From NCBI GenBank assembly GCA_017475605.1, contig JAFVFD010000002.1, positions 11,769 through 75,768 on the forward strand: DNA of 64,000 bases, written 5' to 3'. The stretch's first letter is position 1; every line of letters begins with the position of its first letter. This DNA comes from Alphaproteobacteria bacterium (GTDB lineage: Bacteria > Pseudomonadota > Alphaproteobacteria > Rs-D84). The notes below the pieces were generated by a model. That model ran no database searches. It saw nothing but the letters and a program-made list of their open reading frames with translations, and was not told where the DNA came from. Positions 5,319 through 55,061 of this stretch are shown one piece after another. The translations under genes were made by a program, and so were the position numbers.

Positions 5319-7194
5319 AAATAAAATGAAACGCGATAAATCAATTTGGTATTTGATTGTGCCGGCATTCATTATGATATTGCTGGGGGCATTGGCATTT
5401 GGTGGGCGTGGCACATTGTTGCCGATATCGTCCAATGGGGCGGAACCTGCGCGTCCGGTGGAATTGTCTTTTTCAGATGTATTGCGTCGTGCCGATGAAA
5501 TCAAGACGATGAACATTCGTGGGTCTGATGCGACGGGGACATTGGACGATGGTACAAAATATACCGCAACAATTACATACGATCCTGAATTGTTGGAAAA
5601 AATTGCGGCGGGTGGCGCATCTATATCAATTGATTCATCAAAATCATTTTGGGACAAGACGGTGTATTGGTTCCCATTGTTTTTGTGGTTTGTATTTTTC
5701 TGGATGTTATTCCGCGGTCCGCGTGGTGGCATAAGTCGCAGTATCGCCGCACAAAACCCAACTAAAATAATGACCGGTAATTCCAAGAAAACGACATTCA
5801 AAGATGTCGCGGGAATTGATGCCGAAAAGCAGGAATTGATGGAAATAGTAGATTTCCTTAAAAACAAGGACAAGTTCCGCGCGTTGGGTGCGCGTGTGCC
5901 GCGTGGTGTGTTGTTGTCGGGTGAACCAGGCACCGGAAAAACATTACTTGCGCGCGCAATTGCGGGCGAAGCAAATGTTCCATTTTTTGCCGCATCGGGC
6001 AGTGATTTTTCCGGCATTATTGTCGGACTGGGGGTTGCTAAAATCAAAGAAATGTTTGAAATGGCAAAACGTAATGCGCCATGTATTTTGTTCATTGATG
6101 AAATAGATGCTATTGGCCAGAAACGCAGTACCCAGATTCATAACGACCAGGACCGCGAACAAACATTGAATCAGTTGTTGATTGAAATGGACGGGTTTGC
6201 GAATAATACAGGCATCATCGTTTTGGGGGCAACGAATCGTGTTGATATGTTGGATCCTGCGCTGTTGCGTCCAGGACGTTTTGACCGCCAGGTTTATATT
6301 GAATTACCGGACCTGACCGGGCGCAAACAGATTCTTGATTTATATGCGAACCGCGTGAAACTTGCCCCGGATGTTGATTTGATGGATGTTGCGCGTGGGA
6401 CAACGGGCTTTTCGGGGGCGGACCTTGAAAACCTGCTGAACGAGGCGGCTTTACATGCTGTACGCGTTGGGCATGTTGAAATCACAAATGCCGATATGGA
6501 CGAAGCGCGCGATAAAATCATGATGGGGCCACGCAAAGTGCGCAAGATTCGCGATGATGATAAAAAACTAACCGCTTTTCACGAAGCCGGCCACGCATTT
6601 GTCAGTCAACATTATGCGGATATTACAGACCCAATACACAAGGCGACGATTATTCCGCGTGGACGCGCGTTGGGCATGGTGCAACACCTGCCAATTGATG
6701 ACAAGGTTTCCATGACCATTGCCGAGGTTCGCGCCCAATTATCAATCGCGCTGGCTGGGCGTGCCGCCGAAGAAATATTCTTTGGTGCGAATAAAATTAC
6801 AACTGGCGCGGAAAGTGATATTGCCGGCGCAACACGTTTGGCACGTTATTCAATAACTACGGCGGGTTTGTCCGACAAAATAGGGCCGGTTGCGGTAAAT
6901 CAATCTAATACATGGGGCGGGCGCAGCGCGTTGGAAAACGCATCTGAAAAAACCGCTGAAATGGTTGATAACGAATTGCGTTCGTGGCTGGATGCGGCAC
7001 ATGGCGATGCGGTTAAAATATTAACCCAGAATAGAAAAACGGTGGAACGCCTGGCGGGCGAATTATTGAAACGCGAAACATTAACTGGTGATGAAATCCG
7101 CGAAATTATATTGGATAAAAAACCAGTGAAAAAGCAGCCCGCAAAATCAACCACCAAAACCACAACTAAAAAGAAAACAGTTGTGAAAAAATAA
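5296..7194 (+). CDS. ftsH: ATP-dependent zinc metalloprotease FtsH
   Basis: Two N-terminal TM segments, Walker A GEPGTGKT, SRH region and HEAGH zinc site. The start is taken at MAKLEKIKNK, internal to ORF 5257..7194. Confidence 0.95.
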   Translation: MAKLEKIKNKMKRDKSIWYLIVPAFIMILLGALAFGGRGTLLPISSNGAEPARPVELSFSDVLRRADEIKTMNIRGSDATGTLDDGTKYTATITYDPELLEKIAAGGASISIDSSKSFWDKTVYWFPLFLWFVFFWMLFRGPRGGISRSIAAQNPTKIMTGNSKKTTFKDVAGIDAEKQELMEIVDFLKNKDKFRALGARVPRGVLLSGEPGTGKTLLARAIAGEANVPFFAASGSDFSGIIVGLGVAKIKEMFEMAKRNAPCILFIDEIDAIGQKRSTQIHNDQDREQTLNQLLIEMDGFANNTGIIVLGATNRVDMLDPALLRPGRFDRQVYIELPDLTGRKQILDLYANRVKLAPDVDLMDVARGTTGFSGADLENLLNEAALHAVRVGHVEITNADMDEARDKIMMGPRKVRKIRDDDKKLTAFHEAGHAFVSQHYADITDPIHKATIIPRGRALGMVQHLPIDDKVSMTIAEVRAQLSIALAGRAAEEIFFGANKITTGAESDIAGATRLARYSITTAGLSDKIGPVAVNQSNTWGGRSALENASEKTAEMVDNELRSWLDAAHGDAVKILTQNRKTVERLAGELLKRETLTGDEIREIILDKKPVKKQPAKSTTKTTTKKKTVVKK

Positions 7195-11766: not shown

Positions 11767-11843
11767 GCGCCCATGGCTCAATTGGATAGAGCATCTGACT
11801 ACGGATCAGAAGGTTGAGGGTTCGAATCCTTCTGGGCGCGCCA
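11767..11843 (+). tRNA. tRNA-Arg (anticodon ACG)
   Basis: Folded by hand. Acceptor GCGCCCA/TGGGCGC. D-arm GCTC..GAGC. Anticodon stem TCTGA/TCAGA with loop CTACGGA. T-arm GAGGG-TTCGAAT-CCTTC. CCA is encoded. Confidence 0.9.
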
Positions 11844-11851
11844 GGTTTAAT

Positions 11852-11880
11852 AAAAAACACCACCTTGTGTGGTGTTTTTT
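11852..11880 (+). terminator. Terminator after tRNA-Arg
   Basis: aaaaaACACCACCttgtGTGGTGTttttt. Confidence 0.8.
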
Positions 11881-11897
11881 ATTAAATATTCTTGATG

Positions 11898-12045
11898 TCG
11901 CCCAGAAGGATGGGTCAGAGTGTCCAAAGGACACGCATGACCAATACGCAGATGAATAATTAAAAAAAATCTTAAAAAATCGACCGAGAGAGATTTTTTT
12001 GATTTTTATTATTATTCATCAAGGGGGAATGAATGGGCGCGCCAG
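11898..12045. repeat. Element B, copy 1. It is bounded on the left by an inverted copy of the tRNA-Arg 3' end and on the right by a direct copy of it. A second copy lies at 39436..39583
   Basis: Left flank CGCCCAGAAGGAT is the reverse complement of tRNA-Arg ATCCTTCTGGGCG. Conserved core GATGGGTCAGAG..GCATGACCAATACGCAGATGAA-AATTA. An AT-rich spacer follows, then ATCAAGGGGG plus GGGCGCGCCAG (the tRNA 3' terminus), then a terminator. Confidence 0.75.
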
Positions 12046-12046
12046 A

Positions 12047-12080
12047 ATAAAACAACACGGCTTTTGCCGTGTTTTTTTAT
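12047..12080. terminator. Terminator copy following element B
   Basis: aaaacaacACGGCttttGCCGTgttttttt. Confidence 0.6.
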
Positions 12081-12082
12081 TC

Positions 12083-12219
12083 TCTGGTCGCCCCAGGATT
12101 TGAACCCGGTCAAGTTGCGCAGCAACGCAGGGTTCGAAAACAAGTAGATTTGATAAACGCAGTGCAATCAAATCGTCACGGTTTGCGCGCAGGCATTTAT
12201 GCCGAGCGAATCCTTCTGG
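12083..12219. repeat. Element A, copy 1 (conserved ~135-nt structured element). A second copy lies at 39240..39385
   Basis: It starts with CTGGTCGCCC, an imperfect inverted copy of the tRNA-Arg 3' end. Next comes GGATTTGAACC (a reverse-complement T-arm), a hairpin, then GGGTTCGAAAACAAGTAGATTTG and a conserved core. It ends in the hairpin GGCATTTATGCC and GAGCGAATCCTTCTGG, which is the tRNA-Arg T-arm 3' half plus acceptor. Confidence 0.75.
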
Positions 12220-12225
12220 ACATGC

Positions 12226-12305
12226 TTTTATTTTTGTTTATCAAGGGGGAATGAATGGGCGCGCCAGGTTTAATAAAAAAACACCGTCTTTTGCGGTGTT
12301 TTTAT
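12226..12305. repeat. Third junction copy: TTTGTTTATCAAGGGGGAATGAAT, then the tRNA-Arg 3' end GGGCGCGCCAG, then a terminator copy
   Basis: It matches the right end of element B and the tRNA 3' end GGGCGCGCCAGGTTTAATAAAAAACACC. The terminator aaaaaaACACCGtcttttGCGGTGTtttt also serves the minus-strand OMP gene. Confidence 0.7.
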
Positions 12306-25079: not shown

Positions 25080-25130
25080 CGATAAACAAGAACCGCCATT
25101 GTGGCGGCTCTTTCTTTGAAAAAACAGGAA

Positions 25131-25283
25131 TCAAAAAACCACCTAAACAGGTGGTTTTTAAAATTTTGGTGCGAGCAAAGTACTTCGGCAATTTCATTGC
25201 CTTGCCTCGCAACTCGCCCCTTTGCCGACAAAATCAAAAAACCACCCAAACAGGTGGTTTTTAAAATTTTGGTGCGAGCAAAG
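25131..25283. repeat. Two direct copies (~47 nt each, ~105 nt apart) of the tRNA-Gly 3' end plus its terminator hairpin. The segment between them carries an inverted fragment of the same tRNA
   Basis: AAAAACCACC[T/C]AAACAGGTGGTTTTTAAAATTTTGGTGCGAGCAAAG occurs at 25131..25180 and again at 25237..25283. GCCCCTTTGC in the intervening segment at 25214..25223 is in the sense orientation of the minus-strand tRNA, so it is inverted relative to the gene. Confidence 0.8.
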
Positions 25284-25346
25284 GGGCTCGAACCCTCGAC
25301 CTCAACCTTGGCAAGGTTGCGCTCTAGCCAACTGAGCTACGCTCGC
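25270..25346 (-). tRNA. tRNA-Gly (anticodon GCC)
   Basis: Reverse complement: GCGAGCG-TA-GCTC-AGTTGGCTA-GAGC-G-CAACC-TTGCCAA-GGTTG-AGGTC-GAGGG-TTCGAGC-CCCTT-TGCTCGC-A-CCA. This is a perfect cloverleaf with CCA encoded. Confidence 0.88.
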
Positions 25347-39115: not shown

Positions 39116-39206
39116 GGAGACGTCGCATAGTTGGTCTAGTGCGCCACATTGGAAATGTGGTATACTCGCAAGGGTATCAAGGGTTCGAATCCCTTCGTCT
39201 CCGCCA
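39116..39206 (+). tRNA. tRNA-Ser (anticodon GGA)
   Basis: Acceptor GGAGACG/CGTCTCC. Anticodon stem CCACA/TGTGG with loop TTGGAAA. Long variable arm. T-arm AAGGG-TTCGAAT-CCCTT. CCA is encoded. Confidence 0.88.
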
Positions 39207-39239
39207 GAAAATTACCCCGCATTTGCGGGGTTAATTTTT

Positions 39240-39385
39240 GGCGGATATGTGAGGCAGATTTGAACCATTAGCAACGAATGTTGCTGGGTTCGAAAACAAG
39301 TAGATTTTGCAAGCGCAGCGTGGCGAAATCGTTACGGTTTGCCCGCAGGCACATTGTGCCGAGGGAATCCCTTCGTCTCCGCCAG
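39240..39385. repeat. Element A, copy 2
   Basis: It starts with TGGCGGA, an inverted tRNA-Ser 3' terminus. Then ..CAGATTTGAACC, the hairpin AGCAAC-gaat-GTTGCT, GGGTTCGAAAACAAGTAGATTTTG, a core, and the hairpin GGCACA-tt-GTGCC. It ends with GAGGGAATCCCTTCGTCTCCGCCAG, the tRNA-Ser 3' end. Both hairpins carry compensatory changes relative to copy 1. Confidence 0.75.
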
Positions 39386-39435
39386 AAAATTAAAATCTTA
39401 AAACGCCCCGTTCGGGGTGTTTTTGATTTTAACTG

Positions 39436-39583
39436 GCGTGGACGAAGGGATGGGTCAGAGCGAAGCGCATGACCAATACGCAGATGAACAATTACAAAAC
39501 CTGCAAAAACGGATATTTTTAATAGAGTTTTTGCGTTTAGGTTTTGTTTTTGTTTATCAAGGGGGGGGTATCGTCTCCGCCAG
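39436..39583. repeat. Element B, copy 2
   Basis: GGCGTGGACGAAGGGAT is the reverse complement of the tRNA-Ser 3' end, with 15 of 17 bases matching. Core GATGGGTCAGAGCGAAGCGCATGACCAATACGCAGATGAACAATTA. An AT-rich spacer follows, then TTGTTTATCAAGGGGGGG plus CGTCTCCGCCAG. Terminator copies lie at 39398..39426 and 39598..39625. Confidence 0.75.
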
Positions 39584-39688
39584 AAAATTAAAATCTTAAA
39601 ACACCCGTTCGGGGTGTTTTTTATTTAGGAGGGGGAGGAATTGATTGATTTTTTTATGGTTTTGTGATATAATATGTGCAACTAAACG

Positions 39689-39758: not shown

Positions 39759-40910
39759 ATGCAAACACCAAAATTTTTACGCAATTTATTACAATCTAAT
39801 AACTATTGGAATAAAAATAGTACTGAATTCGCAAAAGCAAATGAATATCTGGAAAAGTTATATCCAGTGCAACTGTCCGCTGATTTATCAGGAAGATTTG
39901 TTGAACCGCCATACGATATGACCCTGGAACAATTTGAAAGCGCACAACGGCAATTCGACAAAGATTTGGAAGATGCGATTCATGAAGCAGAAGATTCAGT
40001 AGATGATGCAAATGGAACAGCAGAGCCAATTGACTATGACCAATATGTAGATATTGAAGAAACGATAGATGTTCGTGTTTTGATGCCAGGTGGAAATATA
40101 GAATATATGCAACTTGTCGTATATATGTTGAATTTGCCTGATGATGACACTGATGTGGAACTGGAACCAGATAAAACACAAAGGATTTGGATATGGCACA
40201 GCGAAGAAGACGAAAATGTTTGCGATGATTGTGTATCACACGATGACGAAGTATTCGAAGACAAAGACGATATTCCAGAAATTCCCGTGCATCCTAACTG
40301 TCGTTGTTGGGTTGAAGAAGTAAAGTTAGATGACAACGGTAAACCTATTTCAAGTAAAGCATACAAAGGGCAAAAGCCAGAAATACCGAAAAATGACAAA
40401 GAACCTCAGTCAGAAAAAACGCCAACTTTTGATAAACCTGTTGATATAAAAGAAGGTCAATATGCCACATTTGACGGGAAAAATCTGACTATATTTCAAG
40501 ACGGCAAAGTTGTTGCTTCGTGGAATGCGGTATCAGGTCGTCCAGAGTATCAAAGTCCAGAATATCAAAATCTAAAATCCACAGGTCCAATTCCAGAAGG
40601 TGCATATGTAGCAAGACAAGAAAAATTACAACATATGTCACCAGCAGATTGGGCAATTGGATGGTCCAGAGTTCTGGGAAATAAATTTGGTGGGAAATGG
40701 CCGGGTTCATCTGTTTCTTGGGGAAATTCTCGCGTATGGCTGGAACCTTCAAAAGAAACAAACACTTTTGGACGTGACAAATTCAGTATTCACGGAGGCT
40801 TGTTTCCTGGTTCTGCAGGTTGTATAGATTTGACGGACCAAATAAACTCTTTTACATCTTGGTTGGAAAGTACTGGAAAAGATTTACTGATATATGTAAA
40901 ATATAAATAA
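39759..40910 (+). CDS. Fusion protein with polymorphic-toxin architecture: a MuF-like C-terminal motif (CxxC...HPNCRC) plus a C-terminal L,D-transpeptidase/YkuD-like domain
   Basis: Start taken at MQTPKF with an AAGGAG Shine-Dalgarno (the ORF track starts earlier, at 39645). VCDDCVSHDDEVF...IPVHPNCRCWV resembles the phage Mu F / SPP1 gp7 C-terminal signature. The C-terminus FSIHGGLFPGSAGCIDL resembles the L,D-transpeptidase His...Cys active-site motif. No signal peptide. Confidence 0.5.
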   Translation: MQTPKFLRNLLQSNNYWNKNSTEFAKANEYLEKLYPVQLSADLSGRFVEPPYDMTLEQFESAQRQFDKDLEDAIHEAEDSVDDANGTAEPIDYDQYVDIEETIDVRVLMPGGNIEYMQLVVYMLNLPDDDTDVELEPDKTQRIWIWHSEEDENVCDDCVSHDDEVFEDKDDIPEIPVHPNCRCWVEEVKLDDNGKPISSKAYKGQKPEIPKNDKEPQSEKTPTFDKPVDIKEGQYATFDGKNLTIFQDGKVVASWNAVSGRPEYQSPEYQNLKSTGPIPEGAYVARQEKLQHMSPADWAIGWSRVLGNKFGGKWPGSSVSWGNSRVWLEPSKETNTFGRDKFSIHGGLFPGSAGCIDLTDQINSFTSWLESTGKDLLIYVKYK

Positions 40911-40925
40911 GTCAAAGGACATTTT

Positions 40926-41273
40926 ATGAAATATTGGAAACGCGCAGCAATAATTTTTGTTGGAATTGATTTTTTTCTACTTTTTGCGTTGATTGATGAA
41001 TATTATGAATTTTTTATCAAGGATTGTCGTGATGCGTTTCCATTCCATTATTGTCCATGGGGTGGCGAAAGTATGGGTTGGGGATGGAGAAATGCCGATG
41101 TATATTTGAATGGCATAGCATCATCTGGTGCTGTTTTATTATTGTTTATTCCATTGGCAATATATCATTTGTACAATCAAAATTATAAATATGCATTTTG
41201 GACTGCTTTAGCCCCAATCATAATATCTTGGAGTAGTGAATTTTTAGAACGTATTTTATATTATTGTGCTTAA
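40926..41273 (+). CDS. Small polytopic membrane protein; candidate immunity protein for the upstream toxin
   Basis: 115 aa with 3 predicted TM helices. Starts 15 nt after the toxin stop. Confidence 0.4.
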   Translation: MKYWKRAAIIFVGIDFFLLFALIDEYYEFFIKDCRDAFPFHYCPWGGESMGWGWRNADVYLNGIASSGAVLLLFIPLAIYHLYNQNYKYAFWTALAPIIISWSSEFLERILYYCA

Positions 41274-41280
41274 CTTGTTG

Positions 41281-41335
41281 ACATTTGAAAATAATGGACA
41301 TGATTTAATTGTTAATGTAAAATACAAATGATGAG
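41281..41335. repeat. Direct repeat, left copy, flanking the 41328..41630 cassette
   Basis: TTGAAAATAATGGACATGATTTAATTGTTAATGTAAAATAC compared with the copy at 41632..41690, TTGAAAACAATGAACATGATCTAATTATCAATATAAAGAAATAC. Confidence 0.6.
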
Positions 41336-41630
41336 TTTTATAGGCAGTTTTTTATCTATGACCCTTGCATTATTCTTTCTGAATGATTTGTCGGGGCTTT
41401 TAAGTAACGGTAAATGGGACGGCTTACTGCATTTTATATGCGAACATGATTGCCTTATGCTTGTTGATAAAATAGCCCTAGTATTATTTAGTACGATGTT
41501 TGTATTTTTTTCTATACAGGCAATAAAACTATACAAATGGAAATTTTTATTTGTCCCTTTATTATCTTGCCTTGCATGGTTATTGTTGATGATGTTACAT
41601 TTATTGACAGTATATTTGTTTTTTGTATGA
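41328..41630 (+). CDS. Small hydrophobic membrane protein; second immunity-like cassette
   Basis: 100 aa with 3 TM helices. Flanked by ~55-nt direct repeats. Confidence 0.35.
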   Translation: MMSFIGSFLSMTLALFFLNDLSGLLSNGKWDGLLHFICEHDCLMLVDKIALVLFSTMFVFFSIQAIKLYKWKFLFVPLLSCLAWLLLMMLHLLTVYLFFV

Positions 41631-41631
41631 T

Positions 41632-41690
41632 TTGAAAACAATGAACATGATCTAATTATCAATATAAAGAAATACTTTGTCCTGCATCAT
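41632..41690. repeat. Direct repeat, right copy
   Basis: See the left copy at 41281..41335. Confidence 0.6.
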
Positions 41691-41719
41691 TTGGTGCAGG
41701 TTTTTTTATAAAAAAAGAG

Positions 41720-42238
41720 ATGAAAGATATGAAAATGAGTGACAATGGCATAAATATGTTAAAAAAATTTGAAGGTTCTGTAACAAAAGGCGATAAACAC
41801 ATTATATATGATGATAAAACCGGGAAACCCGTGGATGTGAACAAACCTTTACCAAGTGGTGCAACTATCGGTTATGGTCATTTAATCAAACCGAACGAAG
41901 ATTTTAGAAACGGAATTTCAGAATCTAAAGCCACCGAATTATTACGCGCCGACATTGCAACTGCAGAACGTGCCGTACGAGATAACATAACTGTACCATT
42001 ATCACAGAATCAATTTGATGCTCTGACTTCTTTGGCTTATAATATCGGCTCAAAAAATTTCGCAAATTCAACCGTTGTTAAATATGTAAACAATCCGAAT
42101 TTTCATAGTTCTGTGTATCCAAATCTGGAATCTGCATGGAAGACATGGAATCGTTCCCAGGGCAACGTATTAAAGGGTCTTGTAAACCGCAGACAAAACG
42201 AATGGGTTATGTATAATCGTGGTATATATTTAATTTAG
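41720..42238 (+). CDS. Phage-type lysozyme (GH24, lambda/T4-like endolysin fold)
   Basis: LKKFEGSVTKGD..YDD..GKPV....TIGYGH matches the GH24 catalytic region. QFDALTSLAYNIG. Confidence 0.85.
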   Translation: MKDMKMSDNGINMLKKFEGSVTKGDKHIIYDDKTGKPVDVNKPLPSGATIGYGHLIKPNEDFRNGISESKATELLRADIATAERAVRDNITVPLSQNQFDALTSLAYNIGSKNFANSTVVKYVNNPNFHSSVYPNLESAWKTWNRSQGNVLKGLVNRRQNEWVMYNRGIYLI

Positions 42239-46431: not shown

Positions 46432-49400
46432 CTACCACGATATATATCCTGGATTACACGTCCGTTCGCACTTTTTGGTGGCATTGTTCCACCGCAGCGA
46501 ACCTGTTTCGTCTGAATATGGGCGATCACAAATTGGGACACATTCGTTGTTGTCCAAATTGTACTTTTCGCCTTGATACAGACATGATGCTATTTCGCAA
46601 CCGGTGCTGTAACTGGCCGCGGCAACTTCGCCCAGAACACTGAACTTGTTGCGACATGCGCTGCACTGTTCGGATGCGTTATTCTTTTCGTATGGGTCGT
46701 TCGTATAGCCCGGTACGCACGATGTCGCAATACATTCGTTCCATGAACCCGTTGCGGTGTTCCATGTCTTTGTACCAACACCGTTCGGGACGTTACACAC
46801 CTGTTCATTTTCAACACACGCGTTTGATGCCAGGTGGAACCCATCTTCACACGATTTTATCGTACAGATGCCGAATGCGCCATGTGCTGCATCCCACTTC
46901 TGTGTGGCAACTGTTGCGTTTGGTGCCACGTCTGTACAATCTTTGACATCTTCCTCACAAACACTGTTGTATGGATGGTAACCAATCACGCAGCTTTCAA
47001 TTATACAGTTTCCATCAGGTTTATAGGACAATGCGTTTTCACGATTGCATGGCTTACATGACCCATTGACCATTTCGTAGTTACTGATACACGCTGTTTC
47101 TATACAATGCCCGTCAACAACTTCTGCCGGGTTACCAGTCGCAGATGTACCAGTGTACTGACAATTGTTTGGCCAATAGGCGGTGGTTTCAACTGGGCTA
47201 AGGGTACAATTATCCTCAACATATCCAGTACACTTGCGGTAACAATCGCTTGCCTTGGTGGCCCCAGGGGCTGAATACATCCAACTGCCATCACCCAGGT
47301 CCGCGCAAGATTTCGCGCCGTTGCCACCTTCGCCGCCCGGTGTTCCATCACAGAAACTGCCCGCTGGACAAGTTACACATTGGCCATTGGACAGTGTATA
47401 ACCTGATGCACAAGATGTAATCGCACATGTGTCTGTGGCAGTATAATAATCATGGCCCGACATCGCATTTGCGTTTTCGCCCATTGTACAGTCGCGATAG
47501 CAATATGCCTTATCTATTGTTCCTGCTTCTGACTTTGGATACAACCCACCAGTCAGATATTCGCAGGTTTCTACTTCCTGTCCAGGTTCACATACACTGT
47601 TTTCTGGACATACGAAGCAGGCACGTTCGCTTTCGCTGGTTGCTGTACGTGTTGTTGTCCCCGCCGGACACGCATACCGCGCCAAATCGCGATCTGGGCT
47701 GTAATACGCATAGTCCGCCACAGAACATTCTATATCGGTCGCATTTGCCAACCAATAACCCGCATCGCAGTACAGCATAGTTGGGGTTCCGCAACCGGCC
47801 AGGTACGCATCATCCGCAACACTCCATTTACATGTGCGTTCGCCACCACCATGTTCCGCAACATACGGTTGTCCATTCTTCCAGCATTCAGATATCGTAC
47901 TGGTGTTGTTGTATGATGTCTTACCTTCGTTCGGACACGCATGACGTTCCAGTTCGTCTTCAATGCTGTAATAGTTGAAGTCTACGACAGTACATGCGAT
48001 ATCTGTTTGTGCCGCCAAATAATACCCACCACGACACTTTGTAATAACCTTGTCAAAGCAATCGCGTCCATAAACCGCACTATTTCCTGTGCCATTTGAA
48101 TACCAGCAACTTTGTGTCCCAGTACCCGACCCATCGGTCGCCGCATAGGCCAAATTCGCCTTGAAGCATTCCTGGACCGTTTCCGCGGTTGTGTTATCAG
48201 ACTTCGTTGTACCGCCATTCGGGCACGCATCACGTGTTAATATATTGTTCGCACTGTAATACCCGACACCGGCCGCTGAACAATCGGTGCCTGTTGTGGT
48301 TGCCAACCAATGACCCGCATCACAGGATGTTATTACAAAGTCTTTACATCTGTCGGAATAGGCCAGGGCTGTTTCGTTGTAATAACATGTTTGTGTACCG
48401 CGTCCATGTGTTGCAACATATGTTGGCAACAATTCTTTATAACATGCCGCACTGCTTTCCGAATTGGCAGGCGATTTACCATCGTCCGGACAGGGTTCAA
48501 TACCTGCCTGGCCAGAATTTGTAACGACGGTTACACCAGGGCAATAGTTGTTTGCCGTACATGGTAAACAGTCTGTTGTCGGATTTTCGCCGGCACCGCG
48601 ATAATATTTACCCACTGGACATGTAATAGGTGCATCGGTCCATTGTGCAGAAACCGTAGCATTGGATGTTGTAAATGTCAGTGCGGCCGTTGTTGTTACA
48701 AATTTGCCGTCCGCATCAACAACAGATACATTATTCCCTGTGTATCCAGCGAATGTCAACACACCCTTGACCGGTTTTGTGGTCAGTGTGGTAATTGCCG
48801 TTGTGGCGGCTGCATTTGAATACCAGCCGGTCGCATACTTCAAATACACCTTGGCCGGTGAACCAGCGGTTGTCGCACCATTGTGATTCAATGTGATTTC
48901 ATACACATTCGGTGTCCACTGGGCAAACAATTCAATATCAGATGCATCAGACGATATATTTGTCGTAACCGTAGTACCCGCGTTATAGCATGTGCCACCA
49001 CCATTCGCCGCGGTGCACCATTTGTTCGCGGTGCTGTACCCGGTGCGTGTATCCACAATCGCCGGTAATGCGCATGCGCCACTGTCGAATGTGCACTTTA
49101 CACTTGGTGCGGTTGAACCCGTACCACCATTTTTGTTAAGGGTAATGGTGTATTCGTGTGCATCGCATGTTGGTGCGGCGGTGTTGTTGTTTTTGACATC
49201 ATAACCGGTCTTGCACACTACATTGTATGAACAAGCATTATATGTTGTCGCGCTGTTACCATACACGATATTTTCCGCGGCGGATACAGTCTTGGAATTT
49301 GCGAAATCCGCAGGTGTTTTATCGCATTCGGTATAGCATGCGGTGTAACTTGCCGCGAATTCTGTTGAACCCGCCCAGCCCGCCGGACATTCCGTTTGGG

Positions 49401-52400
49401 TTGTTGCACCATCACCACTGTAATAACCGCTTGTTGTGCCGGAACACGCGAACGAACCGGCGACCCTGTAAAAGTATCCCGCGTTACAGGTCAAAGCATC
49501 GGCATCCATACAGTTATTATAATCACCACTAACTTCTGTGCCGTTGTAATAGCATGTGGCGAAACCTGTACCATTTGCCCAATTGTGATTTGGATAGCCG
49601 GTTGTTGCGGTATATGGATTATATGTTACATAACAAGTCTCAATACCACGATATTTTTGACCTTCAACCAGGGCGGCCTTGCCCGGGGTGCCATCTTTGT
49701 CGGTCGGACAGTCGTGGAATCCATCTGTATCGCACCACATATCTTCTGGGCAAACATTGGAACTATAGATACATTTGTTATAAGCATTTGTCGTTGTGTT
49801 ATAGGAAACATGTTGGCTTACCACATTAACGGTAGTTCCGTTCAGATTCTTGGTTGCTTTACATGTCAAATAACAATCTGTAATCGCTTTACCATTTGTC
49901 GCACTGCCAGTATTTGGTGTGTTGCTGACCACATCGCCAGATGTATCTGTACCCGCGGGGCACACATTTAATTTAGTAGATGTGGTATCTGTTATATTTG
50001 TTTCGTTCCAATTAGTCGGGGCAGGACTCCAATTGCCATCGCCAACCGCAACACAGTCCAGATTTTCATTTGTACTTGTTGCGCCGTCTAATTCATCATA
50101 GTATCCAGCATCACACTTGCGCATTGTATAACTGTTGCCGCAATTGATTGAATAGGTGTTGTTAACAGTGCTCCAATGGCAACGTTTTGTGCGACCACCA
50201 TGAGTTGTCTTTTCCCAAATGCCTTCGCGGACACAACCTTCTATCGAGCCACTTTCATCACCATCTGTGGATATCGTATTACGGGAATCATCAACATCGT
50301 ACACAGCTTCTGGACAGCGTGTGCGTGCGGTAAAGTTGGTCGCACTGTAATATTGATAACCAACCAAAGAACAGTCAGTTGTTGTTTTGGTTGTATCCAA
50401 CCACCAACCACTGTTACATGTCAATATTTCAATTGTATTACAGTCGGAATTATACTTGCCCGCACTGTAATGGCAAACCTGCTTACCCTTACCATGATCT
50501 GCGCTGTATTGTACTGTGGCAAAGCAGTCTGATTCTTCGTCTCTGCCATTGTCAGAACCAACACTTGGGGCAACATTGGAAAGCGCGGTGCCGTTCCAGG
50601 TTTGTGCCGGGGTATATGTTGTCCCCGCAACCGCAGTTGGACAGGCGTTTATAAAGTGATTCTGGCCATCGCGGTCTTCGTCGCTGTATGCGACACCACC
50701 CGGACACCATGACCCATTCGGACAAGACTTACATGCGTTGTCTGCATCATCAAAATATTGTCCCGCATTACATGTCTTGGTCTTTTTAGCAACCCAACTT
50801 GCTGTCAGGGTTGTTGTAGTTGTGGTATCGGTATAATTTACCAGTTTATTGGTCGCCACGATTTGACCGGTGCCATTTATCACAGCAACCTGGGTTCCGC
50901 CAATCGTTGCATCATAGCCAGAACAATTCTGTGAGCCCTTGGTTGGCAGCACGATGCTTGTTATCGCGTTTGTCGCGGCGGCATTTGAATACCAGCCTTT
51001 GCCATATTTCATATAGATTGGACCATCTGTACCACCGGTACCACCATCTTTTGCTAATATGAATGTATAGATGTTTGGTTCACATGTTGTACCAGATGTA
51101 TGATAGCCGGCAACGCATACTGGGTTTTGCCAGGTGCATGTTCCAAATGTACCACTTGTTGTAACGGTTTTGTTCGTTGGGTTGTATGCCGTTATGGTCC
51201 CGGCAAAACTGACCGTTTCCGCAACCGGCGCACGTGTACCAATTACTTCGCCATTGTCGGTAACATTCACCGATGAACAAGAGTTATAACATGCTGTCGG
51301 CAAAGCACTCTTTTCGCCTTCTGTTGTGGAATTGATGTGTCCAGGCAAAGCACTACATGGATAGCGCGCCATACTTACAGCGTCTTCTGTGTTATTTGTC
51401 GGGGCGGGGCTCCAATTGCCTTTACCCGCTGGTTCACAGGTAGAAGAATCTTCTGCAACGCGATAATAACCACCACTGCAGTATTTAATTTTTATAGATT
51501 CACAGTTCTTATACCCGGCACTTGAATCATCAACATAATTGCAAACCTGGTCGCCACCACCGGTTCCATTGGCCAAGGCCACACCTGTTCTTGTCGTTTT
51601 ACATGCGGTAACAGCAGAACTGCCCGCCGGTGATGTTACGGCCCCGCCAGATGTGTCTGTTGGGCAAGTCTTATGGCACCCGTCATCTGCCTTGTCTTTG
51701 TCTTCGTAGTCAACCTGGCCACCTGGGCAATAGAAGCCAGCAGGGCATTCTGCGTCAGAACCAGTTAACCCAGCGGTACATGTGAACAAGTTTGTTGACC
51801 AACGGGCATACAACGTGTCAAATACACCCGCGGTTGATGCGGTGCCGCCTTCGGCTGTGTCGGCAATACCAATGGTTGTTGCTACCGACAGATTACCAGA
51901 GGCATCGATTACTTGAACCCCACCTGTTTTTTCAGATACGGTATAGTAGCCCATAAATGTGTGATTTTCCCATGTCGGCGGTGTAATCTTGGTTACCGTT
52001 GTGCCAAAGTTAGTCAAAGACCACCCAATTGAATATTTTTCATATATGGTCTTGTTTGTGCCCGGCGCACCGTTAAGGTCAAGTGTTATTGTGTACACCT
52101 TGGGATCACATGTACCCGCTGTTGCGTTTTTATCATAATTGCCCATGCAGGTATATGTCATGGCACAACTTGACGGCATCGCGGTACATCCGCATAACAC
52201 ACCGTCTATATTATTACAAGTGCCATCGCAATAATAGTCTGCACCACTTGTTTTTGCGTTTTCATTTTGGGTGCATGTCTTATTGTTGGCTGGGCATACT
52301 TGCGGTGTACAATACAAAGAGCATGTTGTATAGCATGTTCCACACGCACCACCTGTGTTGCCAAGTATCGACTGATTGTAGCCGGTTGTACTACAAGATT

Positions 52401-54987
52401 CGCATGTTCTTGTTTCTGTATTTTCGAAATATCTGTTCTTACACCAAACTTGTTTAAGTTGGCATGCAGTATTGTTTACATTAGTACATGCAGAACTTCC
52501 ATAATCTGAAATACCAGCAACCTTGTTTTCTGTATCATAAGAACAATTTGTTGAGTTTGTTGGGCATGTGCTTGGTTCAACACAAGTTGCGGTGTTACAT
52601 GTTTTATAGCAGCCCGCAGATGTTGTCGATGCCGCATCAGACTTGGTATATTCCGATCCCAATGTTGTACAGGCAACAAAGCATCCCGCGCTACCTTCAA
52701 TAGCAGTTCCGGTGCCCGGACAGTATTTACCGTCGGTTGGGCAATCTACGTGTTGTTCGCCATCGTAGTATTTACCAGCCTGACATTGAACGGTATTTTG
52801 AGACCAATGTGCATATAGTGTTGTATTGGTGGTCTTATCCCAAAGACGCAAAGAAACACCACTTGCGGAATAATATTGTGTTCCGCCTGTTTGTGCATCA
52901 AAATACCCGGCAAAAGACCATGTGGCGCGTGTCGGCAATTCAGAAGCAGACAAGGCCGGCAGATGCGCATCGTATGTCGCCGTAACTGATGATTTACAGC
53001 CCGTTCCACACGTGCCTTCATTTGCGTTCAGTGTAACTTGATATTCTAATGGTTCGCAATATGTGCCATCATCACTTACTTTATATCCTTCTGTACAAGA
53101 GAATGGTTCGTCATCGCCCGGACAGGTGGCATGTGGAACGCATGCGTTACAACCGTTGCCGGACAGATAATAATTTTCAGCACACGCAGTTGCCGCGCAA
53201 TTGTTTTCCCCATTTTTATGATAAATGCCAGATACCGTCTTTGAACCCGCAACATCGGATACCTTACATTCACGATAACAATAATTCGAATCGGTTGTTC
53301 CCTGGACTGAATAAGGGAATGTCGAATTAGATGCCGAACATAATGTACAATTTGTCGCGGTCGTAGATGCAAAGTAATTAGCGGCAGCCACAACCGGCGC
53401 AACAACCGTTTTGTTACATGTGTTTGTGTTTGTTTCACAGCCGCTCTTTATGGTGCCATCGGCGGTACCTGTCGCGTTCGAATATGCGACATAATCGCAT
53501 GTCGCCGGTGTACAATCTTGGAATGTGGCAGAAACGCAACCGTTTGGTAATGTTTCAATATGTGCGCCACTTGATGTACGCTGTTTGGTCTCGCTGAAAC
53601 ATTGGGTGATGGCGGTCGATGTCGTGCTTTCTGTGTGTGGGTATGCCGTAGGGCATGTTTCGCATGCCGCATTCGCCTTGGCGGATGATGCCTTGTACTT
53701 GTTGTATCCGCATGCAGTCCACACCGCATAAACCGTTTTGTCAGTTGTTATTGTTATTGTATACGAACCAGTCGTCGCAGATGCAGATGTTGCCCAGCCA
53801 CCAAATACATAGCCCGCACGATAGAACGAGTTTGTATCACCACTGGCCAGTGTACATTCAACCCCGGATGCACATTGTTTGTTTGCTGGTTTTGTCCCAT
53901 CACCACCATTCAGGTTATATGTTACAGTGAACGTATCTTGGGAATAATTGCCGGTAAATGTAACTGTGCCGGAATACACCCCAAGGTTTTCATAGGTACA
54001 CGCAATACCGGTTTGTCCACTGCCGAATGATTTAGTAACCAAAGTACTTGGAACCCATGATCCAAATGACCAATTGTCAACAGTTGGTGCGGTTGCCGCA
54101 TTAAATGTTTCGCCATATGTACATGACGCAGGGGTTGTTGGTGCAGTACCTTTTGTTGGTGCCCAAACAAAGTTAATCGTGTTTGGTGTCGCGGTACATG
54201 TATATGATGTCGCACCTGCGGTTGAATTGGTTTGTGTGGTATTTGTGGTATAGCCTTGGTCGGCTTCTACACTATACACACACTTGTTGTCGTTTGAAGT
54301 TGTGGATGCGGTACAGGTCTTTACCCCCGTACCCTTGGTGGCAAGACACGCACTACATGCATACGGTGCAGACCCTGTGCGAACATATTTTGAACTACAT
54401 GTTTTAATCGTACAAAGGTTAGTTATAATATTGTTGTTCCAGGCCGTTGTTTCCCAGTTTGCGACATTAGACGCATTGGCGCAGTTTGCATCGCAACTGG
54501 TCTTGCCGGTACCACTGGTGGTTTTGCCTGCGGCACACGCGGTACAGGATGTGTTGCCGGTACCGGTATTGTATGAACCTGTGGCACACGCAATACACGC
54601 ACTTTCGGCACTGCTGCCGGTGCTGGCATTGTATGTTCCGGCGGAACATGCTGTGCGACCACCAACATCATCATAATGTACAGTAACTCCGCCCGGACAA
54701 TATCCGCCGGCGGTACAGGTCGTTTCGCCCGCACCAGCGGTTGCTACATACTTACCGGCCGTTGTTGTTAAATAACAGTTGTTTATGCCACCTGTGGTAT
54801 TATCAGATGCACTGTTTGGATAGTTTGTTGGGCATTTTGCGCACTGACTGGACCCATCAAGGTAATAACCGGCATTACAGCTGATGTATGTTTTTTCGCA
54901 TGAATAGCCCTCGGCAAAAGAATTCGCCGAAAATGCGAACAGAAACAAACCAACGAAAAACCCGAGAAAACAGCGCTTTCTTCCCAT
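46432..54987 (-). CDS. Giant secreted cysteine-rich repeat protein 1 (~2850 aa). It has Listeria-Bacteroides (Flg_new) repeats, ephrin-receptor-like CxxCPxGxYC modules, a reiterated ~70-aa Cys module, and a ~500-aa C-terminal region shared with gene 2
   Basis: Signal peptide MGRKRCFLGFFVGLFLFAFSANSFA, with the start at 54987 preceded by AGAGAGGAAG. YTITLNKNGGTG...TGYSTANKWCT and YEITLNHNGATTAG...FAGY are Flg_new-like. Many modules of the type CLPCTANNYCPG and CKSCPNGSWCPGG. Repeated module CDAGYWL..C...YYS..R..CP.G. Confidence 0.85.
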   Translation of the reverse strand: MGRKRCFLGFFVGLFLFAFSANSFAEGYSCEKTYISCNAGYYLDGSSQCAKCPTNYPNSASDNTTGGINNCYLTTTAGKYVATAGAGETTCTAGGYCPGGVTVHYDDVGGRTACSAGTYNASTGSSAESACIACATGSYNTGTGNTSCTACAAGKTTSGTGKTSCDANCANASNVANWETTAWNNNIITNLCTIKTCSSKYVRTGSAPYACSACLATKGTGVKTCTASTTSNDNKCVYSVEADQGYTTNTTQTNSTAGATSYTCTATPNTINFVWAPTKGTAPTTPASCTYGETFNAATAPTVDNWSFGSWVPSTLVTKSFGSGQTGIACTYENLGVYSGTVTFTGNYSQDTFTVTYNLNGGDGTKPANKQCASGVECTLASGDTNSFYRAGYVFGGWATSASATTGSYTITITTDKTVYAVWTACGYNKYKASSAKANAACETCPTAYPHTESTTSTAITQCFSETKQRTSSGAHIETLPNGCVSATFQDCTPATCDYVAYSNATGTADGTIKSGCETNTNTCNKTVVAPVVAAANYFASTTATNCTLCSASNSTFPYSVQGTTDSNYCYRECKVSDVAGSKTVSGIYHKNGENNCAATACAENYYLSGNGCNACVPHATCPGDDEPFSCTEGYKVSDDGTYCEPLEYQVTLNANEGTCGTGCKSSVTATYDAHLPALSASELPTRATWSFAGYFDAQTGGTQYYSASGVSLRLWDKTTNTTLYAHWSQNTVQCQAGKYYDGEQHVDCPTDGKYCPGTGTAIEGSAGCFVACTTLGSEYTKSDAASTTSAGCYKTCNTATCVEPSTCPTNSTNCSYDTENKVAGISDYGSSACTNVNNTACQLKQVWCKNRYFENTETRTCESCSTTGYNQSILGNTGGACGTCYTTCSLYCTPQVCPANNKTCTQNENAKTSGADYYCDGTCNNIDGVLCGCTAMPSSCAMTYTCMGNYDKNATAGTCDPKVYTITLDLNGAPGTNKTIYEKYSIGWSLTNFGTTVTKITPPTWENHTFMGYYTVSEKTGGVQVIDASGNLSVATTIGIADTAEGGTASTAGVFDTLYARWSTNLFTCTAGLTGSDAECPAGFYCPGGQVDYEDKDKADDGCHKTCPTDTSGGAVTSPAGSSAVTACKTTRTGVALANGTGGGDQVCNYVDDSSAGYKNCESIKIKYCSGGYYRVAEDSSTCEPAGKGNWSPAPTNNTEDAVSMARYPCSALPGHINSTTEGEKSALPTACYNSCSSVNVTDNGEVIGTRAPVAETVSFAGTITAYNPTNKTVTTSGTFGTCTWQNPVCVAGYHTSGTTCEPNIYTFILAKDGGTGGTDGPIYMKYGKGWYSNAAATNAITSIVLPTKGSQNCSGYDATIGGTQVAVINGTGQIVATNKLVNYTDTTTTTTLTASWVAKKTKTCNAGQYFDDADNACKSCPNGSWCPGGVAYSDEDRDGQNHFINACPTAVAGTTYTPAQTWNGTALSNVAPSVGSDNGRDEESDCFATVQYSADHGKGKQVCHYSAGKYNSDCNTIEILTCNSGWWLDTTKTTTDCSLVGYQYYSATNFTARTRCPEAVYDVDDSRNTISTDGDESGSIEGCVREGIWEKTTHGGRTKRCHWSTVNNTYSINCGNSYTMRKCDAGYYDELDGATSTNENLDCVAVGDGNWSPAPTNWNETNITDTTSTKLNVCPAGTDTSGDVVSNTPNTGSATNGKAITDCYLTCKATKNLNGTTVNVVSQHVSYNTTTNAYNKCIYSSNVCPEDMWCDTDGFHDCPTDKDGTPGKAALVEGQKYRGIETCYVTYNPYTATTGYPNHNWANGTGFATCYYNGTEVSGDYNNCMDADALTCNAGYFYRVAGSFACSGTTSGYYSGDGATTQTECPAGWAGSTEFAASYTACYTECDKTPADFANSKTVSAAENIVYGNSATTYNACSYNVVCKTGYDVKNNNTAAPTCDAHEYTITLNKNGGTGSTAPSVKCTFDSGACALPAIVDTRTGYSTANKWCTAANGGGTCYNAGTTVTTNISSDASDIELFAQWTPNVYEITLNHNGATTAGSPAKVYLKYATGWYSNAAATTAITTLTTKPVKGVLTFAGYTGNNVSVVDADGKFVTTTAALTFTTSNATVSAQWTDAPITCPVGKYYRGAGENPTTDCLPCTANNYCPGVTVVTNSGQAGIEPCPDDGKSPANSESSAACYKELLPTYVATHGRGTQTCYYNETALAYSDRCKDFVITSCDAGHWLATTTGTDCSAAGVGYYSANNILTRDACPNGGTTKSDNTTAETVQECFKANLAYAATDGSGTGTQSCWYSNGTGNSAVYGRDCFDKVITKCRGGYYLAAQTDIACTVVDFNYYSIEDELERHACPNEGKTSYNNTSTISECWKNGQPYVAEHGGGERTCKWSVADDAYLAGCGTPTMLYCDAGYWLANATDIECSVADYAYYSPDRDLARYACPAGTTTRTATSESERACFVCPENSVCEPGQEVETCEYLTGGLYPKSEAGTIDKAYCYRDCTMGENANAMSGHDYYTATDTCAITSCASGYTLSNGQCVTCPAGSFCDGTPGGEGGNGAKSCADLGDGSWMYSAPGATKASDCYRKCTGYVEDNCTLSPVETTAYWPNNCQYTGTSATGNPAEVVDGHCIETACISNYEMVNGSCKPCNRENALSYKPDGNCIIESCVIGYHPYNSVCEEDVKDCTDVAPNATVATQKWDAAHGAFGICTIKSCEDGFHLASNACVENEQVCNVPNGVGTKTWNTATGSWNECIATSCVPGYTNDPYEKNNASEQCSACRNKFSVLGEVAAASYSTGCEIASCLYQGEKYNLDNNECVPICDRPYSDETGSLRWNNATKKCERTCNPGYISW
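48660..49290. repeat. Near-identical intragenic repeat, copy 1 of 3 (Flg_new pair unit). The other copies are at ~57320..57960 and ~59700..60250
   Basis: The ORF track shows identical spurious peptides (MPPPFAAVHHLFAVLYPVRVSTIAGNAH..., MIQCDFIHIRCPLGKQF...) at all three places. A DNA comparison by eye shows only scattered mismatches over ~500 bp. Boundaries are approximate. Confidence 0.8.
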
Positions 54988-55061
54988 AACTTCCTCTCTT
55001 TTATATTTCATGGTAGAAAAAATATATGGGGTAGTGCAAGAATAAAATTAACAAAATATAA

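Follow-up and report, generated by a model that had tools for sequence, protein, structure and literature searches.

Organisation of the arrays downstream of tRNA genes

The DNA studied here is a 64,000-nt stretch (hereafter the window) of the genome of an Alphaproteobacteria bacterium of the Rs-D84 lineage (assembly GCA_017475605.1, contig JAFVFD010000002.1, positions 11,769 to 75,768 of the forward strand). It carries three tRNA genes, tRNA-Arg(ACG), tRNA-Gly(GCC) and tRNA-Ser(GGA), each followed by an array of short cassettes that combine a terminator, a small module and a copy of the 3′ end of the same tRNA. These arrays are the subject of the present study. Copies of the tRNA 3′ end are designated A, the successive terminators of an array T1, T2 and T3, and the module families of the window X, Y and Z. 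The coordinates, counted from the first nucleotide of the window, are collected in Table 1.

The array of tRNA-Arg contains three terminator hairpins and reads T1, an inverted tRNA end, a core of about 120 nt, TGGGCGCGCCAG, T2, a second module, ATCCTTCTGG, a short tail, TGGGCGCGCCAG again and T3. The sequence CGAATCCTTCTGG is repeated at 12207-12219. The tRNA-Ser array is assembled from the same parts in reversed order, with the Y cassette preceding the X cassette; it features direct-repeat families of 28 nt and 52 nt and also has three terminators. At tRNA-Gly, a 52-nt repeat composed of the tRNA 3′ end and the terminator is present in copies that are 98% identical and 103 nt apart. Module Z (about 55 nt) lies between these copies, starts with the reverse complement of tRNA nt 59-68 and has a core of about 36 nt with a hairpin. 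CCA is encoded by every tRNA gene called in the window and in the compared loci L001-L081. The terminator stems of these genes typically start at the CCA itself (CCAAAAAT.../...ATTTTTGG), so that the tRNA 3′ end forms part of the terminator hairpin.

The original prediction for this DNA had described tRNA-end copies with terminators, as well as inverted copies of the local tRNA end, at all three genes. The direct copies and terminators are indeed found at each gene, with slips of one base in the coordinates; the inverted copy CTGGTCGCCC of the tRNA-Arg array, for example, occupies 12084-12093. The inverted copies match the local tRNA in X and Z, and the left arm of Y is weakly cognate.

Table 1. 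Positions of the tRNA genes and of the array components in the window
Feature	Position	Strand	Remarks
tRNA-Arg(ACG)	11767..11843	+	ARAGORN and Rfam; CCA encoded; nt 59-76 (segment A) are the repeated sequence
Terminator T1	11845..11887	+	Opens the X cassette
X left arm CGCCCAGAAGGAT	11899..11911	+	Perfect reverse complement of tRNA-Arg nt 59-71 (13/13)
X core	11912..12033	+	Xa hairpin (GGGTCAGAG..CATGACC), AATACGCAGATGAA, long AT-rich Xb hairpin ending ..TTCATCAAGG
Direct copy of tRNA-Arg acceptor 3′ strand and CCAG (TGGGCGCGCCAG)	12034..12045	+	Closes the X cassette
Terminator T2	12046..12083	+	Bidirectional; opens the Y cassette
Y left arm	12084..12130	+	Diverged inverted tRNA-3′-end-like sequence (..GGATTTGAACCC), then a small hairpin
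Y core	12131..12209	+	GGTTCGAAAACAAGTAGATT, helix P2, AATCGTCACGGTTT, helix P3, GAGCGA
Partial A copy ATCCTTCTGG (nt 59-68), Xb-like tail, second full acceptor and CCAG copy	12210..12267	+	Second full copy at 12256-12267
Terminator T3	12277..12303	+	Sole terminator of the empty allele L086
tRNA-Gly(GCC)	25270..25346	-	ARAGORN and Rfam
tRNA-Gly array	25129..25269	-	Minus-strand order: terminator, module Z, tRNA-end copy, second terminator
Z inverted piece GCAAAGGGGC/GCCCCTTTGC, 10 nt	25216-25225	-	Reverse complement of tRNA-Gly nt 59-68
tRNA-Gly end copy TTTGCTCGCACCA	25168-25180	-	
tRNA-Ser(GGA)	39116..39206	+	ARAGORN and Rfam
Y cassette, tRNA-Ser	39207..39385	+	Terminator (hairpin 39214-39231), left arm, Y core, A copy
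Y left arm, tRNA-Ser	39239-39286	+	Starts with TGGCGGA (39239-39245)
Y core, tRNA-Ser	39287-39366	+	
A copy, tRNA-Ser Y cassette	39367-39385	+	Perfect; nt 59-76 plus G
X cassette, tRNA-Ser	39386..39583	+	Terminator (hairpin 39400-39423), inverted arm, X core, acceptor copy
X inverted arm, tRNA-Ser	39433-39451	+	17/19 complementary
X core, tRNA-Ser	39452-39571	+	
Acceptor and CCAG copy, tRNA-Ser X cassette	39572-39583	+	
Last terminator, tRNA-Ser array	39584..39625	+	Hairpin 39598-39620

Module families and tRNA-derived arms

Alignment of the arrays places both X and Y at tRNA-Arg and tRNA-Ser, and Z at tRNA-Gly. The cores are common to the Arg and Ser loci; the arms flanking them differ and match the local tRNA. 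Hairpin stems of the Arg and Ser cores differ by compensatory changes, and the expectation for 22-nt cores common to the two arrays was 0 in shuffled sequences. The X consensus runs from GGGTCAGAG through a hairpin, GCATGACCAATACGCAGATGAA and a long AT-rich hairpin to TTYATCAAGG; that of Y runs from GGTTCGAAAACAAGTAGATT through a hairpin, AATCGTYACGGTTT and a second hairpin to GAGSGA. The general unit comprises a structured core, the local tRNA sequence from about nt 59 (the 3′ half of the T-loop) to CCA and the next base, and a terminator. The census, from which locus L065 with a tRNA cut by the locus edge was left out, gave 62 cassettes of 80-322 nt with no open reading frame (ORF). One cassette was found at 49 tRNA genes, two at five, three at one and none at 32. 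The repeated tRNA-end duplication varies in length from 11 to 55 nt.

The junctions with the tRNA copy are precise. In Y, two bases that track the local T-loop (AT, TT, GT or GC) come after the invariant GAGSGA and lead into the T-stem and acceptor strands. This right arm is identical to tRNA nt 59-76 at 18/18 positions in 17 of 63 copies and has at most one mismatch in 22 of 63; in many other copies a further module sits between the core and the tRNA-end copy. The X module opens with the local tRNA in reverse complement, with nt 59 as the exact end point, and closes with a shorter direct copy comprising the acceptor strand and CCA. In 18 X copies at seven tRNA types, the perfect run of the opening arm has a median of 12.5 nt (range 10-19), as against 6 nt at most for non-cognate tRNAs; the arm tracks species-specific variants of tRNA-Tyr and reaches 19/19 in L058. 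The left arm of Y resembles the inverted 3′ third of a tRNA. Its assignment as a specific antisense of the local tRNA was rejected (-13.2 vs -10.3 kcal/mol, rank 0.69).

Further cores were observed in the same slot, between GGGTTCGA and nt 58/59 of the tRNA-end copy (L029:~6930-7100, L058, L025:~6440-6610 and L026). These families, which are found outside the window, include V (..GACGTTAGTATGCCGG..), Q at tRNA-Gln and U, located after Y at tRNA-Arg(TCT). Y cores fused head-to-tail without arms occur in L016, L024 and L045. A Y core with an extra hairpin of about 40 nt nested in the P2 loop is present in L018:~1-190 and L027:44-160, and looks like an insertion within an insertion. One more family from outside the window, W, directly follows the last ..CCA of arrays in L003, L007, L037, L038, L069, L074 and L054, either in place of the terminator or ahead of it. 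The consensus of W reads 'CCA CCCTTCG..hairpin..CTAYGGGTGG CAGGCC'; base pairs join the 3′ arm to the CCA and the next 3 nt, and the two sides covary (CCACCC/GGGTGG vs CCACAC/GTGTGG).

Distribution and association with tRNA genes

A scan of 185,579 species genomes, one per species, with a 20-nt Y core as the query identified 81 loci in 52 assemblies, all of them gut or rumen metagenome-assembled genomes (MAGs) of 'Candidatus Enterousia' or unnamed Alphaproteobacteria. This host lineage corresponds to the order Rs-D84, whose genomes are mostly smaller than 1 Mb (PMC12306168). Y copies are located less than 1 kb downstream of a tRNA gene on the same strand in 74 of 88 cases, typically at 54-126 nt, and the remainder are mostly at locus edges. 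The Y-bearing tRNAs belong to 15 isoacceptor types (Gly, Gln, Ser, Tyr, Arg, Pro, Lys and Val), and orthologous Y modules occur at tRNA-Gly(CCC) in 13 species. With L065 again left out, the last 12 nt of the tRNA recur, with at most one mismatch, within 1 kb downstream of 54 of 81 tRNA genes and upstream of none (0/81). Together with the shuffle expectation of 0, this excludes a chance association.

An independent sample, obtained by scanning metagenomes with the X core, gave about 24 true X copies at tRNAs for Gln, Arg, Tyr, Pro, Ser and Glu. A Y covariance model applied to these X-selected loci recovered seven further Y copies, 7/7 inside tRNA 3′ arrays, including a diverged variant at tRNA-Glu(TTC). 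Every copy examined outside the window was thus found in a tRNA 3′ array and flanked by that tRNA's own end, as anticipated for discrete elements tied to tRNA 3′ ends, and no copies lacking tRNA-derived flanks came to light. A second X cassette in L124 (9250-9480) has arms of the tRNA-Arg(ACG) type and lies inverted at 4.6 kb from the tRNA, with only a remnant (GGCGCGCCAC) of the tRNA end upstream; it represents either a relocated cassette or a rearrangement.

The Y core had no matches in viral contigs. The only viral-contig match of the X core (L082) lies in a coding region and was dismissed as a chance match. The tRNA-Arg array had no blastn match in the phage and plasmid collections, and metagenomes scanned for the sequence flanking the Arg locus returned 0 matches. 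Unrelated GC-rich bacteria have the 20-mer ATGACCAATACGCAGATGAA within a conserved protein-coding gene; these coincidental matches (L099, L100, L102, L103, L106, L113, L117, L120, L123, L127, L129 and L134) were not counted as X elements. With Rfam 15, only the three tRNAs reach the gathering threshold and nothing credible appears in the arrays up to an E-value of 10. No description of such an element family was found in the literature.

Gain, loss and reordering of cassettes

Allele comparisons revealed the presence/absence polymorphism expected at the array junctions and, in addition, a polymorphism of cassette order (L086, L124 and the tRNA-Gln loci). Over 1.2 kb, Logan contig L086 matches the window at 98.7% identity, and it contains tRNA-Arg followed directly by T3 and the gene for an outer-membrane protein. 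It lacks window positions 11833-12255 (423 bp, comprising T1, X, T2 and Y), and the junction is the 25-nt repeat TGGGCGCGCCAGGTTTAATAAAAAA. T3 is probably the native terminator of the tRNA, since it is the only one in this empty allele. The syntenic relative L124, about 86% identical, has only the X cassette at tRNA-Arg, and more distant relatives have only Y. A further pair of occupied and empty alleles differing at the repeats is L025 and L013. In all three comparisons (L086, L025/L013 and L124/window), the alleles differ exactly at the repeats, as in islands that target tRNA genes.

Five related species with identical tRNA-Gln(TTG) differ in array content. Two distinct terminators, Ta and Tb, are found at these loci. 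The order of cassettes is permuted between two of the species, [Ta-Y-A][Tb-Q-A]Tb' vs [Tb-Q-A][Ta-Y-A]; the other alleles are [Ta-Y-A]Tb, a tandem of two [Ta-Y-A] units, and an array with module W inserted after CCA. The terminator moves with the module that follows it and an idiosyncratic variant of the tRNA end moves with the module that precedes it, which places the exchange within the acceptor-strand/CCA part, about 12-14 nt long.

The mean distance between Y cores is 0.21 for different tRNAs of the same genome, 0.19 for the same tRNA in different genomes and 0.285 for unrelated pairs, and the Y cores at two different tRNA-Lys genes of one MAG are only 1.3% apart. These values indicate vertical inheritance combined with exchange within genomes.

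Folding and covariation of the cores

In 73 distinct Y cores, the 19 proposed base pairs are standard pairs in 98.3% of cells, compared to 84% in shuffled data, and 0 of 500 shuffles reach the observed value. Cells changed on both sides number 223 vs 66 in shuffles, and pairing falls to 18-53% when the partner is slid by 1-3 columns. The X core shows compensatory change at seven pairs in 17 copies. At variable pairs, U-G and G-U are present (12 U-G at one Y pair, G-U in 12 of 17 copies at one X pair) and A-C is essentially missing. Judging from this pattern, it is the tRNA-sense strand that folds, as RNA or as single-stranded DNA. The reading of X as a minus-strand unit was rejected on account of the plus-strand G-U in the 12/17 copies, the pair in question belonging to the Xb hairpin.

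Of the four X and Y modules of the window, three have folding z-scores between -5.1 and -6.6, and the truncated Y of tRNA-Arg scores only -1.3. In the predicted folds, the 5′ arm pairs with the 3′ tRNA-end copy, and the closing helix reproduces the acceptor helix of the tRNA. The T-loop of X and Y is interrupted or replaced by the core, and neither ARAGORN nor Rfam makes a tRNA-like call. Hammerhead and group I/II intron readings of the T-loop insertion were rejected (size, missing core motifs, no Rfam match). From the pattern of substitutions, the cores are selected folded elements. Their conservation over some 50 species with compensatory changes distinguishes them from decaying attachment-site (att) scars, and the proposal that the arrays are nested remnants of many excision and integration events is not supported.

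Enzyme search and islands at the same sites

The window ORFs tested with Pfam encode housekeeping proteins (GroES/EL, FtsH, TilS, MurJ, Era, LysRS, DinB, peptidases, rpoZ) or have no match. Among them there is no integrase, in agreement with the original prediction, and no transposase, TnpA/TnpB or reverse transcriptase. The participation of a tyrosine integrase, also proposed there, is unproven, and no recombinase could be connected with the cassettes.

A single island was seen at such a site. In a MAG (JAFZXK01; L039:129-4760), tRNA-Arg(ACG) is the site of a 4.4-kb island, which sits exactly behind the CCAG, is accompanied by the repeat GTGCGCCAG(G) of 9-10 nt and moves a Y cassette 4.4 kb from its tRNA. 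The products encoded by the island are a large serine recombinase of 523 aa, a protein with DUF6994 and one similar to MerR; the island has no sequence in common with X or Y. A tblastn search over all loci detected this recombinase nowhere else. Its ORF, on the opposite strand, reads into the tRNA 3′ end. The nearest analogue on record is the ssrA gene of Dehalococcoides, which harbours tandem islands with a 20-bp 3′-end repeat and insertion in the T-loop, some of the units being devoid of integration genes (PMC3146451).

Neighbouring genes and assembly of the arrays

Directly 3′ of the tRNA-Ser array, the block at 39759-42238 (+) contains an ORF of 383 aa, whose product has matches of the Tlde1/YkuD type and weak ones of the MuF type, an ORF of 115 aa and a gene for a phage-type lysozyme; a DinB-family polymerase gene comes next. 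All contigs of the species have this block in identical form, and it bears no sign of an inserted island; the suggested link between the tRNA-Ser array and a toxin/lysozyme island receives no support. Two adjacent minus-strand ORFs, 46432-55011 and 55104-63800, encode products of 2,859 and 2,898 aa with Listeria-Bacteroides repeat (Flg_new) domains. These are probably giant surface proteins, which is striking for a genome likely smaller than 1 Mb.

Contigs L084, L085, L091, L094 and L097, which belong to the species of the window and come independently from metagenome and Logan data, terminate within tRNA arrays, and a gene caller placed a 60-aa 'gene' inside the tRNA-Ser array (L090/L095). 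Such arrays break metagenome assemblies and lead gene callers to report spurious small genes and ORFs.

Proposed mechanism and alternative explanations

The explanation we favour, with moderate confidence, is that the arrays consist of miniature, non-coding, non-autonomous integrative cassettes of the Enterousia/Rs-D84 lineage, recombining at the repeated tRNA 3′ end. A cassette comprises a terminator, a structured module and a copy of the host tRNA 3′ end, taken from about nt 59, or from the acceptor strand only, to CCA. Insertion right after any ...CCA would leave the tRNA and its termination intact, because the cassette opens with a terminator and closes with a tRNA end, and would create a new target copy. 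As the allele comparisons show, cassettes are added, lost, duplicated and reordered via recombination in the repeated tRNA-end/terminator segment. The agent may be a recombinase supplied in trans, as for cis-mobilizable elements (CIMEs); by analogy this is reasonable, because the Dehalococcoides ssrA units partly lack integration genes and the L039 island uses such a site. Alternatively, the changes could arise by recombination or by template switching, with the 12-55-nt repeats and the hairpins as substrates. The modules would probably be made as read-through RNAs from the tRNA promoter.

Several observations weigh against this explanation. Neither a recombinase nor an autonomous parent element was found in the 64 kb of this genome and the 8-kb flanks elsewhere. 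Simple recombination between att sites leaves unexplained how a cassette acquires new tRNA arms. The single empty allele L086 can be a deletion rather than an unoccupied site, and the presence of Y or X at tRNA-Arg in relatives favours deletion. Many Y copies at orthologous tRNAs look vertically inherited, and this would suit a host RNA gene equally well. As to RNA expression, no sigma-70-like promoter was found within the arrays and each module comes after a terminator, so transcription would require read-through from the tRNA unit.

Next in our ranking, and already rather unlikely, is the view that X and Y are not mobile and represent conserved small RNAs of the host, expressed from the tRNA transcription unit. 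The tRNA-end copy and its complement would form an acceptor-stem mimic through which tRNA 3′/5′ maturation enzymes could trim and stabilise these RNAs, only unequal crossing-over would change the arrays, and local gene conversion would keep the arms identical to the tRNA. The strong covariation and invariant single-stranded motifs, the folding of the sense strand in an orientation fixed relative to the tRNA, the predicted closing helix equal to the acceptor stem, the orthologous Y of tRNA-Gly(CCC) and the retention of the modules in genomes below 1 Mb (PMC12306168) all agree with this view. It does not account for one family occupying at least 15 unrelated tRNA genes with local arms at each, for which some transfer mechanism is required, nor for the differences between close relatives at one tRNA (none, X, X and Y, Y, or Y and Q). 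The terminators before each module and the missing promoters also speak against host RNA genes, and the natural empty allele L086 hints that array loss has no fitness effect. Less probable still are replication errors driven by hairpins, in which snap-back or template switching at the terminator and T-arm hairpins would produce direct-inverted-direct copies of the tRNA end with no dedicated enzyme, and the cores would then spread among these scaffolds by microhomology-mediated template switching or gene conversion. Rearrangements of this type are known as the tandem-inversion-duplication model in the Salmonella literature. Segment A, the terminator and inverted A do form an imperfect palindrome centred on the terminator, the junction of the direct copy falls in the T-loop, at the centre of the T-arm palindrome, and the arms would be cognate by construction; core-core tandem joins use GA(A) microhomology, and terminators flanking one module are often near-identical. 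Random events without strong selection, however, would not put homologous cores at the same nucleotide in at least 15 tRNA loci, and the origin and conservation of the cores are left unexplained.

The last two explanations are both considered very improbable. One is an RNA-mediated retroelement resembling short interspersed nuclear elements (SINEs): read-through transcripts ending in CCA would be reverse-transcribed and the cDNA would recombine with the tRNA gene, the 18-nt antisense arm being similar to a primer-binding site and reverse transcription stopping at position 58. Retroviral primer-binding sites span exactly the 18 nt that the X arm covers as reverse complement of tRNA nt 59-76, with 19/19 in L058; the structured sense strand and the variable length of the duplications fit as well. 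Against it, no reverse transcriptase was seen in any examined sequence, poly-A and other hallmarks are missing, and what is copied extends to the genomic base behind CCA and to the terminator, which points to the gene or a precursor, not the mature tRNA, as their source. The other explanation, largely refuted, regards the arrays as decayed attL/attR scars of larger islands or prophages, or as miniature elements of the insertion sequence (IS) type IS200/IS605 with guide-like flanks. Real islands do use these sites, as in L039 with its large serine recombinase, the tandem ssrA islands with a 20-bp 3′-end repeat and T-loop insertion offer a precedent (PMC3146451), and the order 'GGTTCGA | Y core | nucleotides 59-76' resembles that of target motif, element and guide. 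Compensatory evolution and conservation over about 50 species are, however, unexpected for scars, and there are no coding remnants and no phage or plasmid homology; the window ORFs tested gave neither TnpA nor TnpB, the two hairpins of Y are dissimilar, and copies are not dispersed at other short target motifs.

A further idea, unlikely in our estimation yet with a real chance of being right, is that of a new kind of cassette system in which folded hairpins of tRNA end, terminator and complement serve as attC-like recombination sites and the cassettes encode RNAs acting on tRNA 3′ ends. Such RNAs would copy or pair with the acceptor/T-stem strand (nt 59-76) of the neighbouring tRNA and could serve as decoys, guides, primers or processing competitors. 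If this idea is true, highly reduced genomes would possess an equivalent of integrons that is linked to tRNAs and encodes RNA.

In the explanation we favour, the target-regenerating and target-duplicating logic of tRNA-end islands is used by protein-free units of 100-300 bp with covarying folds. The cassettes occupy about half of the isoacceptor types seen, in genomes below 1 Mb, where selfish or useless DNA is normally purged. If mobile, they define a minimal integrative element and suggest that a hitherto unidentified recombination activity targets tRNA ends; as host RNAs, they would form a new class of tRNA-linked RNAs with exact sense and antisense copies of the acceptor/T-stem.

Comparison with known systems

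The 3′ ends of tRNA genes are classic landing sites of kilobase-sized islands. As in the attL/attR structures of those islands, the inserted DNA lies here between direct repeats of the tRNA 3′ end; unlike them, the cassettes have no integrase within or adjacent to them, as far as the window ORFs tested are concerned, and no ORF. The arrays work like accretion arrays of CIMEs, such as those of ICESt1 of Streptococcus thermophilus: the cassettes, too, have flanking att sites and no recombination genes of their own. In both CIMEs and the ssrA islands (PMC3146451), as in the arrays, the last 18-20 nt or so of the (t)RNA gene are directly repeated around each unit, the repeat starts in the T-loop, units lie in tandem downstream, some have no recombinase of their own, and the gene is regenerated. 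The cassettes described here differ from both in measuring 100-320 bp rather than kilobases, in having no ORF, and in providing each unit with a terminator, a covarying folded core and an inverted copy of the target. Moreover, the same core families are present at at least 15 tRNA genes with local arms, and no cognate integrase is known.

The likeness to integron cassettes and attC sites is architectural only: promoterless units in one orientation form arrays, imperfect palindromes able to fold as single strands lie between them, and at these sites units are reordered, acquired and lost. The window ORFs tested revealed no intI/attI platform, and no search for the attC consensus was made; the palindromes here consist of a tRNA 3′ end, an intrinsic terminator and the complement in place of the R and L boxes of attC, and the cassettes are non-coding. 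Integrons are reportedly absent from Alphaproteobacteria.

Repetitive extragenic palindromic sequences and bacterial interspersed mosaic elements (REP/BIME), Correia elements, Rickettsia palindromic elements (RPE) and repeats similar to miniature inverted-repeat transposable elements (MITEs) are likewise short, structured, non-coding and lineage-specific, and often lie near terminators. All these repeats are dispersed at many gene ends and have element-specific inverted ends and fixed short target duplications, whereas the copies described here are confined to tRNA 3′ flanks and their 'terminal repeats' derive from the target. MITEs proper are derivatives of DDE transposons; here, the ends follow the local tRNA, the duplication varies (11-55 nt) and only tRNA flanks are occupied. 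The arrays also depart from IS200/IS605 elements and TnpB guide RNAs, given the missing TnpA/TnpB in the window, the unrelated P2 and P3 of Y and the occurrence at tRNAs only.

Plant-mitochondrial t-elements, mascRNA and RNAs of tRNA 3′ external transcribed spacers resemble the modules in that a non-tRNA RNA would be linked to a tRNA unit, and the predicted acceptor-stem-like helix with CCA could recruit tRNA-processing enzymes in the same way. The modules differ from them in apparently keeping no T-loop/elbow, in having no Rfam match and in being repeated as cassettes that copy the end of the local tRNA exactly, at many tRNAs. The known part of the system is integration that regenerates its target at tRNA 3′ ends, and its reduction to non-coding, structured cassettes that carry a terminator is the new one.

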